From Rhina ancylostomus (lineage: Eukaryota), in NCBI GenBank assembly GCA_030265395.1, contig JARFYF010000094.1, forward strand, positions 38,795,841 through 38,859,840: a stretch of DNA of 64,000 bases. Reading direction: 5' to 3'. The number at the start of each line of letters is the position of its first letter. Position 1 is the stretch's first letter. The notes under the pieces were generated by a model. That model did no database searches and was not told the DNA's origin. It saw nothing but the letters and a program-made list of their open reading frames with translations. Positions 2,366 through 60,346 of this stretch are shown here, piece by piece. Position numbers and translations under genes: made by a program.

Positions 2366-2579
2366 AGACACAAGAGACTACAGATGCTGGAATCTAGAGC
2401 AACAACCAATTGGCTGGAAGAACTCAGCAGGTCAAGCAGTATCTGTAGGTGGGAAAGGAATTGTCGATGTTTCGACAGTCCTGATGCAGGGTATCAACAG
2501 AAAACACTGACAATTCCTTCCCCTCGCCACAGATGCTGCTTAATCTGCTGAGTTCTTCCAGTAAATTGTTTATTGATTA
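2366..2579 (-). mobile_element. Penelope-type fold-back short element with 11-bp TSD
   Basis: ACCAGTAACCA at 2355-2365 and 2580-2590. Inverted arms 2400-2473 and 2500-2575. Contains the GATGCTG...CTGCTGAGTTCTTCCAG repeat and a degenerate hammerhead motif. Confidence 0.75.
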
Positions 2580-7330: not shown

Positions 7331-8346
7331 TAATCATATTTTGATTGCTGTACCATAATTGTTCATTTTATAGATAACATTTAGTGCAGGAAACAAGGTG
7401 CTATTAACTATTTTTTTCACTTTTAATGAAGGATTTAGTTTCTTCCATTTTGAAATTCTAGTAGGTAATATTTGGTTGTCTAACATTTAAAATAACCACT
7501 AGAATTTCAAAATGAAAGATATAATTGTCACCAGCAGTCATCTATGCTTGATGCTGCTTAATATATGGATGTGATGAGGGGAGAAACTTCAAAGAGTTTA
7601 AATGTCACCAGAGAGCCTCTGTGTTACAGCAAAGTGGAAGCACAAAGTAAACAAGTCCATTACACTTTCCATCTTATTTTCTTTCCATTGACTTCAGTAA
7701 TGACCATGCAATTTCCCTTTGCAGCTTTTTTCATGGACCATGCTGTGTTTCTGGTGCTATAATCCCTGCCAACATCAACATCTTCTGAAACACGAGAACC
7801 ACGGATTGAAGTTGTGGAAAGGGAACTCTTATTGTGGTATCCACTTGCTGAGCCTGACAGGTGTTACCAAAAGATGTCACATTTCAATTTCTTTTCTTCC
7901 AATCCTGGGAATGGATTCCCTATTTTCGGCCCCTCTCTCACACTAACTGATGGAGACAGGCTGCTTTCTGCTCTTATTCTGGATTACAGGTTCAGGTCTG
8001 GAGTTGATCCCAGCCCTTGCTTCATTCTCAAGATAATCATTGGGAGAAGCTCGCATGAATTTCACCGGTCCCATCAATGGCTGGAATTCCTTTTAGAGAA
8101 ACCCTAATTTTCAAGGAGAAACTCAATGATTCCAGACTGGGGGTACCCCAAACAAAAGGGAAAGAGAAACACACAAAATATAACATACAAACGATATAGT
8201 GTGGGAGATACTATGTCTCCCACACTATATCGTTTGTATGTTATATTTTGGGTCATTAACAAGAGTCCTCTGGGGAAAGAGAAGACAGCTGTGGGAAATC
8301 AATCTCTCCCTTTCCTTCAGAAATACTATTCAAGTCCTAACCAATA

Positions 8347-29425: not shown

Positions 29426-29634
29426 AAATAAAAAATAGAAAATGCTGGGAACACTTAGCAGGTCGGTCAGCATCTGAAAAGGGAGACAGTTAATGTTTCA
29501 GGTTAAAGGTGAAATGTTTGACCTGAAATGTTAACTGCTTCTCTTTCCACAGCTGCTCCCTGACCTCCTGAGTTCCAGCATTTTCTGTTTTTGTTTCAGA
29601 TTTCCAGCATCTTTAGTTGTCATTTATTTATATC
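29426..29634 (+). mobile_element. Penelope-type fold-back short element with 9-bp TSD (in the inferred LRRN1 intron)
   Basis: CACATCATG at 29417-29425 and 29635-29643. Inverted arms ~29424-29507 and 29517-29598, then tail GATTTCCAGCATCT. Confidence 0.75.
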
Positions 29635-41780: not shown

Positions 41781-44152
<2,372 letters not shown>

Positions 44153-47762: not shown

Positions 47763-48206
47763 TGTAGCGGCTAGCTACACTGAATAAAGACACGGGACAA
47801 TTGCTTGGAGTCCAAGAGTCGAATGATCGACTGGGGTGCGCTGCCCCTTTAATAAATACCGTTCCCGTGCTGACGTCACGCGCANNNNNNNNNNNNNNNN
47901 NNNNNNNNNNNNNNNNNNNNNNNNNNNNNNNNNNNNNNNNNNNNNNNNNNNNNNNNNNNNNNNNNNNNNNNNNNNNNNNNNNNNACACGAGACACTTGTT
48001 TGGAGTCCAAGAGTCGAATGAACGACTGGGGTGCGCTGCCCCTTTAATAAACACCGTTCCCATGCTGATGTCACGCACAGGTCATGTGACCTTCCCACAC
48101 ACAGGCTCCACTAGCCCACAAAGAAGGAGTGCCCCGCGCCATCTTGTGTCGGGGCCTCCGACGCTCGCGATCGTGGGAGCCGGTTCGTGAAAGGTAAGTC
48201 GCCACA
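47763..48206 (-). mobile_element. LTR element (TG...CA ends, 4-bp TSD) with a 100-N internal gap
   Basis: Starts TGTAGCG and ends CGCCACA (imperfect terminal inverted repeat). AAGC flanks at 47759-47762 and 48207-48210. CpG-rich. A 95-bp segment is present on both sides of the gap. Confidence 0.75.
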
Positions 48207-52681: not shown

Positions 52682-52810
52682 AGAAGGGTCCTGACCAGAA
52701 ACATTGACTGCCTGCTTTTCTCTATGGATGCTGTCTGGCCTGCTGAGTTCCTCCAGCAGCATAGAGTTTTTCATCTAGATTCCAGCATCTGCAGTCCTGC
52801 TTCTCTCTTA
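52682..52810 (+). mobile_element. Penelope-type terminal repeat, truncated inside the hammerhead motif
   Basis: AGAAGGGTCCTGACCAGAAACATTGACTG...GATGCTGTCTGGCCTGCTGAGTTCCTCCAGC...GATTCCAGCATCTGCAG. Confidence 0.8.
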
Positions 52811-57021: not shown

Positions 57022-59193
57022 TGATGACATACCAAATCTCCTCAAACTCCTAATGAAGTAGAGCCGCTGGCATGCCTGCTTCATGATTGCATCAATGTGT
57101 TGGGCCCAAGATAGATCCTCTGAGATGTTGACACTCAGGAACTTGAAGCTGCTCCCCTTTCCACCACTGACCCCCTCAATGAGGACTGGTGCATGTTCCT
57201 CCAACTTCCCCCTTCCTGAAGTCCACAATCAATTATTTGGTCCTGCTGATGTGAGTGTGAGGTTGTTGTTGCAAGACCACTCAACCAGCCGATCTGTCTC
57301 CCTCCTGTACACCTCCTTGTCTCCATCTAAGATTCTGCCAACAACAGTGGTGTCTTCGGCAAATTTATAGATGGCATTCGAACTGTGACTAGTCACCCAG
57401 TCATGAATGTAGAGAGAGCAGAGCAGTGGGCTAAGCACACCTCCTTGAGGTGCACCTGTGTTGATTGTCAACAAGGAGGAGATGTTACTACCAATTTGCA
57501 CTGATTGTGGTCTCCCGATAAGGAAATCAAGGATCCAGTTGCAGAAGGAGGTACAGAGGGCCAGGTTTTGAAGCTCGTTGATTAGTGCTGAGGGGATAAT
57601 GGTGTTGAATGCTGAGCTGTAACCGATAAACAGCAGCCTGACGTATTTATTGCTGTTGTCTCTGTGCTCCAAAGTCGAGTGCAGAGCCAGTGAGATTGTG
57701 TCTGCTGTCGACTTGTTGTGGTGGTAGGCGAATTGCAGTGGGTCCAGTTCTTTGCTCAGGCAGGAGTTAATTCTAGCCATGACCAACTTCTCAAAGTACT
57801 TCATCACAGTAGATGTGAGTGCTTCCGGATGATAGTCATTGAGGCAGCTCACCCTGCTCTTCTTGGGCACCGGTATGATTGATGTCCTTTTGAAGCAGGT
57901 GGGAACCTCTGACTGCAGCAGTGAGAGGTTGAAGATGCCTTTGAACACTCCAACCAGTTAGTTGGTACAGATTTTCAGTGCCATACCAGATACACCATCG
58001 GGGCCTGACACCTTGCGAGGGTTCACCCTCTTGAAGGATGTTCTAATGTCAGCCTCTGAGTCAGAGATCACAGGGTCATCAGATGCTGGGGGGATTTGCA
58101 CAGGTGTAGTGTTATTCTCCCTTTCCAAGCGTGCATAAAAGGCATTAAGCTCATCAGGGAGTGAAGCATCACTGCCATTTATGCTGTTAGGTTCCTCCTT
58201 ATGGGAAGTAATGGCATACAAACACTGCCACTGCTGTCACGCGTCTGATTGTGTCTTTTACTTCACATGGAATTGTCTTTTCACTTTCACGATAACCTTC
58301 TGTAGGTTACACCTGAACTTTTTGTAGGGTTCCAGATCACCGGTCTTGAACGCCATAGATCTAGCCCTCAGCAACTCCTGGTTCATCCAGGGCTCCTGGT
58401 TTGGGAAAACTCAGTATCTACTGGATGACCCACACTCACCCACACAGGTCTTGATGAAATCAATGACGGCCATTGGATATTCATTCAGATCTGAAGATGA
58501 ATTCCTGAATATGGTCCAGTCCACCAATTCAAAGCAGTTCTGTAAACGGTCCTTTGCATCCCTTGACCATACCTTTGCTGTCTTCACCCCTGGTGCCGTG
58601 GTCCTCAGTCTCTGCCTATATGTCGGGAGTAGAAATACAGCCAGGTGCTCGGACTTGCCAAAGTGCGGGTGTGGGATGGCACATGAAGCGTTCTTGATGG
58701 CGGTGTAACAGTGATCGAATGTGTTGGCTCGTCTGGTTCTGCAGGTGAGATGTTGGTGGGAGTTCATCAGAGACTTCTTCAGGATAGCCTGGTTGAAGTT
58801 CCCTGTGATGACCGGAAAGGCACCAGGGTGCACTGTCTCGTGACTATTGATCACGGTGCACAGCTCCTCCAGTGCCAGTTTGACATTTGCCAGGGGTGGT
58901 ACACCGCTACCAGGGTAACGGCATAGACCTCCCTCAGCAGATAAAATGGACAACACTTGACCGCCACATGTTCCAGGTCGGGGAAGCAGGACCGAGAGAG
59001 AACTGCCACGTCTGTGCACCTCGATGAGTTAATTGTGAAGCAAACACCGCCGCCTCTGCCTTTAGCTGATGCTGCTGTCTGGTCCATGCGATGAACGGTG
59101 AAGCCCTTGGGGTGGAGCGCTGTGTCCAGAGTGCTGGGAGTGAGCCAGGTCTCTGTGAAGCAGAGTACACAACAATCCTTGATGTCTCTCTGA
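57022..59193 (-). mobile_element. Rex1/Babar-type LINE ORF2 (APE endonuclease + RT), 5'-truncated and disrupted
   Basis: [87 protein letters not shown] (YADD-box mutated) and QRLYFIRSLRRF, spread over several frames with stops. Confidence 0.9.
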
Positions 59194-59259: not shown

Positions 59260-59610
59260 ACATAGAAGCAGACTGTTCAGCCCATCCAGACTATGCAGTC
59301 TATCAGACCATCTCCATCGGTCCCATTCCCCCACTTACTTTCCCACAACATCTTCCCTCTCATGTTGCCTATCAACTCCATGCTGATTCTCCTCACACCC
59401 ACCACTACCAGGGTTCATTCACAATAGCCAGTTAATGTATCAGCACATCTTCGCGATGTTGGGGGGGGGGGAGGGGAGGAGCCAGAGCATCAAGAAGAAA
59501 CTCACGGGAAGAGGGAGCAAATTGCACATAGACTGCACCAGAGGTCGGGATTGAACCTGGGTCGCTGGAGCTGTGAGCCTGCAGCACTACCTGCTGCACC
59601 ATTGTGCTGC
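59260..59610 (-). mobile_element. HE1/V-SINE-like tRNA-derived SINE
   Basis: Minus-strand A box TGGTGCAGCAGG (59590-59601), B box GGTTCAATCCC (59547-59557), V-domain-like core and CR1-type tail (GATGGGCTGAACAG). Confidence 0.8.
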
Positions 59611-60029: not shown

Positions 60030-60129
60030 CATAAAAACAAATTGCTAGAGGTAGTCAGCGGGTCAAGCAACACCCGTGGAGGCAAAGGGATGGCTAACGT
60101 TTTGGGTCGGACCCTGCATTAGGACCTGA
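60030..60129 (-). mobile_element. Older Penelope-type terminal repeat with a mutated hammerhead core
   Basis: Minus strand reads GTC-CTAATGCA-GGGT-CCG-ACCC-AAAAC-GTT followed by the family repeat. Confidence 0.7.
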
Positions 60130-60147: not shown

Positions 60148-60346
60148 TCATGAAAAACACAGTGATGCTGGAGGAACTCAGCAGGCCAGGCAGCATCTGT
60201 GGAGAAAAGCAGGCGGTCAACGTTTCGGGGTCGGGACCCTTCTTCAGGACTGAAGGTAGGAAAAGGGGAAGCCCAATGTATAGGAGGGAAAAGCAGAGCA
60301 GTGACAGGTGGATAAAAGAGGGGAGGCGGGGTGGGCACAAGGTGGT
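60148..60346 (-). mobile_element. Penelope-type terminal repeat containing a hammerhead motif
   Basis: GATGCTGGAGGAACTCAGCAGGCCAGGCAGCATCTG on + strand plus the hammerhead-like motif and a purine-rich flank. Confidence 0.8.
60214..60252 (-). ncRNA. Minimal type I hammerhead ribozyme-like motif
   Basis: Minus strand: CAGUC-CUGAAGA-A-GGGU CCCG ACCC-C-GAAAC-GUU-GACCG. Has the CUGANGA and GAAA core boxes, helix II, palindromic ACGU helix III, an NUH triplet (GUU) and helix I (4/5 pairs). Confidence 0.6.

Follow-up and report, generated by a model that had tools for sequence, protein, structure and literature searches.

A minimal hammerhead motif, likely inactive, in the truncated pLTR end of a Penelope-like element of likely Neptune type

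Penelope-like elements (PLEs) carry minimal hammerhead ribozymes, for which the closest described set is the 56-row alignment of Cervera and De la Pena (PMC4209133): the presence of a base between positions 9 and 10.1 is a conserved trait, and the consensus is CUGANGA-H with an NUH triplet and a helix I that can be as short as 2-3 bp. These published motifs are silent as monomers and weak as dimers. Neptune EN+ PLEs – as far as the available text of Craig et al. 2021 (PMC8557442) and of PMC3846280 describes them – combine RT, a CX2-5CxxC linker and GIY-YIG at the C terminus with heavy 5' truncation, an inverted truncated copy at the 5' end, an optional 30-40-base tail and a hammerhead in the pLTR; excerpts of PMC11167929 and PMC8557442 treat the optional tail as a known PLE trait. 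For the Anolis Poseidon element PAc, the accessible part of Frangieh et al. 2024 (PMC11167929) reports a hammerhead that cut only with protein, core mutants that still allowed insertion in vitro, and a lack of reads ending at the cut site. Non-LTR retrozymes are set out, in the portion of 10.64898/2026.07.22.740005 available to us, as non-coding, pLTR-related elements with a type I hammerhead in each unit of a tandem repeat. The passages of PMC8557442 and PMC11167929 cited here leave open the question whether transposition requires the Penelope hammerheads.

The window – the whole stretch of DNA that was analysed, 64,000 nucleotides long – holds a motif of the first kind near one end. Read on the minus strand, positions 60252-60214 are CAGUC CUGAAGA A GGGU-CCCG-ACCC C GAAAC GUU GACCG, letter for letter as an earlier note on this DNA had quoted them. 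The features to which we refer are these:

60150..60346, minus strand: 5'-truncated, tail-less pLTR end of a PLE of likely Neptune type, lineage A, 197 bp (alignment to the lineage-A majority)
60276..60282, minus strand: TATA-like box 31 bases upstream of the A at 60251, with a T-to-C change in the window copy (motif position; putative promoter)
60248..60254, minus strand: putative initiator-like or splice-acceptor-like 5' edge of helix I, the A at 60251 being the predicted first RNA base (5'-end cluster; G excess one base upstream)
60242..60255, minus strand: predicted rival hairpin in which an upstream CUUCA pairs with UGAAG of the core (minimum-free-energy and centroid folds)
60214..60252, minus strand: minimal type I hammerhead motif (sequence; descriptor; layout of the metazoan PLE consensus, PMC4209133 Fig. 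S3)
60241..60247, minus strand: core box C3-A9 (CUGAAGA), C3 at 60247 (every position in the majority state across 33 lineage-A copies whose selection took no account of the ribozyme)
60240, minus strand: family-wide extra A between A9 and G10.1 (A in 88/95 sampled copies; published hallmark, PMC4209133)
60227..60239, minus strand: helix II with an extra C in its 3' strand (extra base absent from 27/29 nearest loci; fold prediction)
60219..60226, minus strand: core box G12-A15.1, palindrome ACGU and U17 (G12 at 60226; ACGU at 60223-60220; both CpG sites intact)
60164..60197, minus strand: conserved downstream hairpin of the pLTR end (fold prediction; a 35-base stretch covering it is recurrent)
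60043..60125, minus strand: neighbouring copy of the CUGAUG-C-A lineage (G5A, G12A, damaged helix I)

On the sequence features tested, and apart from an uncertain register in helix II, the window motif belongs with the minimal type I hammerheads of PLEs: it has the CUGANGA and GAAA boxes with NUH, the extra base between 9 and 10.1, a loopless palindromic helix III and a location in a pLTR. The cut of this copy is predicted between 60219 and 60218, after GUU. With the motifs of PMC4209133 it shares the type I layout, CUGANGA plus an extra base, the lack of loop 3, the palindromic 15.2-16.2, NUH and a 3-bp helix I, and its lineage shares G10.1-C11.1, bearing out the earlier proposal of a Penelope pLTR hammerhead whose palindromic helix III needs a second copy. 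In both sets most copies are solo remnants of truncated elements and partners lie on opposite strands, and the Crassostrea row of Fig. S3 has a layout nearly identical to that of the window copy. However, the 56 rows include no cartilaginous fish, none has C at 9 or A at 4 as the sister lineages described below do, and the window copy adds an extra C in helix II.

The earlier description needs amendment in three respects. A single extra nucleotide had been counted, and this is the family-wide A at 60240; the copy carries a second one, a fourth C in the run 60230-60227 before G12. Of the 29 other loci that match best, 27 lack the extra C (L010 shares the run of four C, and L023 carries another 1-base insertion), and the G10.1-C11.1 closure, which is present in lineage A, requires in the window copy either a bulge or a 3-bp helix II. 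Helix I, described as short, is present as 3 bp, followed by an A-C mismatch before one further pair. The claim that this is the best-preserved copy is correct within the window but does not extend to the genome, where the motif pattern without indels has 1,541 exact matches.

Our preferred reading, to which we assign a probability of roughly 0.86, is that the motif is a minimal type I hammerhead inside the 5'-truncated pLTR of a protein-coding PLE, likely Neptune, and that this copy is likely an inactive fossil. The 197-bp copy spans -99 to +97 from C3 and differs by 5 mismatches and 1 gap, or ~3%, from a lineage-A majority built from 4 long copies. Neither a PLE reading frame within the 64-kb window nor a target-site duplication for the 197-bp copy was found. 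At other loci, 12 of the 20 regions retrieved around nuclease matches have a same-strand pLTR that follows the nuclease frame at a distance of ~200 bases, and a pLTR lies downstream of RT in 16 of 30 RT loci. A single frame with RT and, at its C-terminal end, GIY-YIG is legible, as motifs, in the broken copies L088, L316, L322 and L020: RT motifs, a C-x2-C-x2-C linker and a GIY-YIG-type segment in L088, and a DKG motif in L322/L316. The Cys linker appears in the translations of L088 and L096, in the forms C-x2-C-x2-C or C-x4-C-x2-C; motif names follow in part the available text of PMC8557442. Atlas look-alikes of these frames, at 0.96-0.97, carried GIY-YIG on 13-55% of members and, more weakly, RT on 11-19%. 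Pfam gave a GIY-YIG match under the cut-off (E=0.12) in one of five frames and nothing for P0001, and the PLE frames had no match in PDB.

Because longer copies run upstream into the GIY-YIG/RT frame, the short copies are best read as 5'-truncated ends of a protein-coding element, and the stand-alone non-autonomous family proposed by the earlier note is not supported. Linkage to the frame, together with two groups of 3' ends – a signature of the PLE tail – likewise identifies the 197-bp copy as the truncated, tail-less pLTR end of an endonuclease-positive PLE. These 3' ends come from 73 copies selected by a 35-mer downstream of the motif; they fall near +98 and near +130 from C3, which gives an optional tail of ~30 bases that the window copy does not have. 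The element thus shares with Neptune EN+ PLEs the domains, truncation, inverted copies, tail and pLTR hammerhead listed above from the available text; different here are the absence of a recovered full-length or partial-tandem copy and a clade assignment made by linker motif, not by a tree. The assignment to Neptune is likely on this motif, which is shared with Nematis. Among the 20 + 30 + 30 fetched loci there was no intact reading frame and no full-length copy with two hammerheads, assembly gaps cutting most long copies, and three rounds of upstream walking never reached the 5' pLTR. At about 850-1620 of L355 a lineage-D pLTR lies upstream of a PLE frame start, with a gap over the ribozyme; it is the best, if gapped, candidate for a partial tandem.

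The family is abundant, and four contig sets of related DNA contain it as well. Sampling of 707,878 bases yielded 157 fragments, or roughly 4-5 hundred thousand when scaled to 2.2 Gb, and a 35-base stretch over the downstream hairpin has 3,871 exact matches genome-wide. Within the window a profile built from the copies finds 8 fragments at 6 sites, in agreement with the earlier count of at least six; the two copies said to read CT(G/A)ATG-C-A-GGGT lie at 2478-2562 (plus strand) and at 60125-60043 (minus strand). Fold-back pairs – a 5' truncation with an adjacent inverted copy – make up 35 of 275 copies. Head-to-head fold-back pairs of the same pLTR end are seen in the window at 2411-2564 (lineage D) and 29441-29580 (old lineage E), and a second lineage-A copy, truncated inside the core and with a tail, at 52682-52774 (plus strand).

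Folding predictions bear on the activity of the window copy. The rival hairpin has a pair probability of 0.64-0.81 in lineage A and below 0.1 in lineages C and D, and is predicted to hide the core strand in read-through RNA of lineage A. For the G10.1-C11.1 pair the probability is 0.04-0.08 in the window copy; two intact siblings, likewise folded from -4, give 0.68-0.86. Helix I is predicted in no lineage-A monomer. Nearest-neighbour folding favours neither the active monomer nor the active dimer, intact copies included: double-hammerhead energies are -5 to -14 versus cofold minima of -27 to -41 kcal/mol, and no folding signal over shuffles was detected (z 0.1-1.1). Thermodynamic support for the active fold is therefore nil, the test being a weak one since core contacts are left out of such models. 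Pairing of the window copy with the neighbour at 60125-60043, as two ribozymes, was also considered and is predicted to be dead, that copy having G5A, G12A and helix I damage. The window copy is likely inactive: cutting is unlikely in view of its extra C, of the rival hairpin that is predicted, and of the absence of a functional partner close by, although the extra C can be drawn as a bulge in helix II, which would allow some residual activity. In lineage A the bases upstream (60255-60242, minus strand) are the reverse complement of the core box, and the fold-back junctions of L255, L264 and L278 fall there.

Selective conservation of the core was looked for among inserted copies and is not seen: in the 33 lineage-A copies that span the motif, core positions are changed in 22/330 cells and flanking positions in 79/1,220 (p=0.90), and selection on inserted copies is rejected. 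The flank set retained one CpG site, which adds 11 changes (the result is the same without it), and the other 40 of the 73 copies, truncated or gapped within the motif, were left out. CpG sites are changed in 51/132 cells of the 33 siblings, of which only 1/33 is fully intact. Inserted copies decay neutrally.

Source lineages show a different pattern. Lineages were compared in 95 gap-free copies, from 100 spanning the motif among 198 matches, grouped by downstream sequence alone. Both decay products of the palindrome CpG occur in every one of the five groups, from which it follows that all five source lineages kept this CpG. Group E has U-A at 2.1-1.1 in 19/37 copies and C-G in 0/37, and has T at 11.1 with G12 kept in 26/37, giving G-U or A-U at 10.1-11.1; exact lineage-E matches have T at 11.1 in 67/68 and A at 10.1 in 14. 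Across the 95 copies changes are associated at 2.1-1.1 (p=0.024) and 10.1-11.1 (p=0.007), with one lineage event behind each pair. The covariation that the earlier note had suggested looking for is weak: 14 hand-picked rows hold 2 double-change pairs against 2.1 in shuffles, and their score was reached by 20 of 500 shuffles. These patterns hint at some constraint that kept structure in the source lineages. That two lineages spread with an altered core (U4A in one; A9C, or else an added C, in the other) argues against strict selection for catalysis.

Several explanations other than a truncated pLTR end must be weighed. A merely fortuitous resemblance within ordinary intergenic sequence has two points in its favour – a scan of the window against Rfam, the check recommended by the earlier note, gave 23 matches at E up to 10, none of them to a hammerhead family, and the folding signal over shuffles is absent – but it would have to account for the fixed position of the motif within a PLE pLTR, for the 1,541 exact matches genome-wide against none for a reversed control, and for the descriptor search. 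The strict descriptor (core boxes, an optional extra base, helix II of at least 3 bp, palindromic 15.2-16.2, NUH and a 3-bp helix I), which, like the search that had been suggested, allows a 1-nt core insertion, picks out 60252-60214 and nothing else in the window; 400 dinucleotide shuffles contain 4 sites, about 1% of shuffles thus giving any match. Chance is rejected as next to impossible. More serious is the idea that the short copies are a stand-alone non-autonomous element, a retrozyme or SINE-like, with its own hammerhead and borrowed Penelope protein. Many copies are indeed short and start at the 5' edge of the ribozyme, the fetched loci yielded no intact frame, and the accessible portion of 10.64898/2026.07.22.740005 reports pLTR-derived retrozymes in vertebrates, one chondrichthyan included; L142, moreover, has a short tandem of core units. 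Yet from +49 to -222, and onward into the reading frame, the 5' ends make up an unbroken ladder, the 197-bp copy begins at -99, within the pLTR, and lineages A, C and D each include copies with nuclease sequence upstream. The type I hammerhead, the relation to pLTRs and the non-coding nature are shared with retrozymes, but the tandem array that defines them in that same portion, with a hammerhead in each unit, is absent: the window copy consists of one truncated end, in continuity with copies that code, beside a broken neighbour of another lineage. We consider a stand-alone element very unlikely.

The third explanation takes the window copy to be an active, or host-recruited, ribozyme that cuts a minus-strand host transcript. 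In its favour, neither the two boxes nor the two CpG sites are damaged, the copy diverges by only ~3% from the lineage majority, and domesticated vertebrate hammerheads exist according to the available text of PMC3088659. Low divergence, however, extends across the entire 197 bp, as expected of a young insertion; the extra C reduces the predicted key pair to the 0.04-0.08 given above; the sole nearby same-strand partner has G5A and G12A; siblings decay neutrally; and minimal motifs are silent as monomers in vitro (PMC4209133). An active copy is thus highly improbable, and the truncated, likely inactive pLTR end is retained. The tandem in L142, at about 1465-1640, consists of several ~35-base units with one hammerhead core each, joined at helix I strands and with an inverted arm upstream; it is possible that it arose by template jumping or represents the seed of a retrozyme-like array.

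A separate question concerns the cores of the sister lineages. The earlier note had proposed a family-specific variant core, CUGANG-N-A. As to the window copy this is not upheld, its extra A being that of the published CUGANGA-H consensus and not specific to the family; the CUGAUG-C-A form, on the other hand, is heritable and high-copy, but marks sister lineages. Position 9 is C in 21/95 sampled copies and in 12/12 of group D, and the full CUGAUG-C-A pattern has 80 exact matches (control 0). Position 4 is A (U4A, CAGA for CUGA) in 14/95, of which 9 fall in the 15-member group C, and the full CAGA pattern has 187 exact matches (control 0). Copies of the C-at-9 and U4A lineages with nuclease sequence upstream are found at L164, L166 and L226. 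Loci L211-L240 tie the CAGA lineage to a downstream haplotype of its own, with nuclease sequence upstream in L226.

If CUGAUG-C-A were a working hammerhead, its bulge would be shifted to lie between G8 and A9. The abundance and heritability of the C variant agree with this, as do the A beside G10.1, retained in 88/95 copies across lineages, and the helix II, palindrome and GUC kept in the C-at-9 lineage. The 56 published metazoan rows, however, vary beside G10.1 and never at A9 (PMC4209133, a set chosen by core descriptor); a single origin may account for all C copies; and the U4A lineage has also spread, in a motif for which the available part of PMC9901934 reports low activity of single changes, so that spread does not imply activity. 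A working shifted bulge is accordingly a minority possibility, and CUGAUG-C-A is probably a weakened or dead core carrying a damaging A9C. No description of CUGANG-C-A or CAGA Penelope lineages was found in the literature searched, although Lunse et al. (PMC5785218) and Hammann et al. 2012 (PMC3334697) could contain them; the accessible parts of PMC3907566, PMC11014351 and PMC6155905 hold nothing on either variant.

The 5' ends of copies speak to the RNA start. They are informative in 44 of the 73 copies (29 were dropped for gaps) and fall at -5..+3 in 10/44, with P=0.012 after scanning all 9-base windows. Ends no more than 2 bases from the cut site number 2/44 (P=0.56), and a cleavage footprint in the copy 5' ends is rejected. 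TATA or TTTAT is present in -36..-22 in 88 of 133 copies with pLTR-like upstream sequence, with a peak at -31/-29. A G directly precedes the A at -4 in 12/21 copies with foreign upstream sequence and no templated C (background 0.26, P=0.002; some of these loci were chosen by pattern). Of 2,444 genome-wide matches, the first 100 have, as the base before that A, G in 41, A in 28 and T in 31. Untemplated G has been linked to cap copying in L1 (available text of PMC9341517), and a rotifer pLTR offers a precedent for TATA with an initiator-like element (available text of PMC3846280). From these features we infer that element RNA starts at the A four bases before C3. Two rivals are live. One is a splice acceptor at the 5' edge of helix I in place of a promoter, as in the TATA-less Penelope of D. 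virilis, which has an intron ending at helix I (PMC4209133); no upstream exon common to the truncated copies was seen. The other attributes the 5'-edge signal to fold-back remnants: in 7 of those 12 copies the G follows a T, as it would in a reverse complement of the bases that lie upstream within the element itself, so that such remnants can mimic an extra G.

If the RNA does start at that A, source elements would carry the ribozyme at the extreme 5' end of their RNA, cutting after GUU – weakly, as a dimer through ACGU, and probably helped by the element's protein. Given such a start, the ribozyme would trim or process the end of the capped transcript, and would not be required for each insertion. 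The template of the window copy would have been uncut or re-joined, since the copy spans the cut site. Similarities to PAc, as described in the accessible part of PMC11167929, are two copying start points that yield the tail, the absence of any trace of ends at the cut site, and spread apparently possible without a working core. PAc differs in belonging to another clade without a Cys linker, in having a frame that starts inside the ribozyme (the frame start was not found here) and in that protein-assisted cleavage, shown there, is only presumed here.

The pair of amplified core variants and the promoter/cap signature may be new. A combined proposal – that RNA starts are capped at the first helix I base under a TATA/initiator promoter, and that two or more lineages reached tens of thousands of copies while carrying cores (CAGA; G8-C-A) absent from the published set, as either new working cores or a dispensable passenger ribozyme – is put forward tentatively, and we think it somewhat unlikely. 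Were either reading of the cores true, the lineages would be a natural test set for what Penelope hammerheads do: U4A and C-at-9 lineages beside core- and CpG-keeping ones are matched natural variants for a cleavage assay, and amplification of sister lineages with altered catalytic letters hints that cutting may not be needed for jumping. If confirmed, the 5'-end cluster, the TATA spacing and the extra G would establish where the RNA of a vertebrate Neptune element begins. The window copy itself is minor, one among the several hundred thousand fragments estimated above, and the family is modestly important.

The window has further features. A 723-codon open frame at 41981-44149 (plus strand) with leucine-rich repeats, Ig and FN3 lies 16 kb from the hammerhead copy, which is downstream on the other strand; we take it to resemble an LRRN-type single-exon gene. 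A LINE reverse-transcriptase fragment at 57232-57957 (minus strand; Pfam RVT_1, E=2e-19) is unrelated to the PLE frame. The near-perfect 40-bp inverted repeat at 8170-8253, with sub-threshold Rfam miRNA matches only, is probably a MITE remnant, and a 95-bp direct repeat flanking a 100-N gap at 47790-48079 is likely an assembly overlap. Finally, a stretch at about 59400-59600 (minus strand) recurs beside loci L005, L006 and L030 and is presumably a tRNA-derived SINE.
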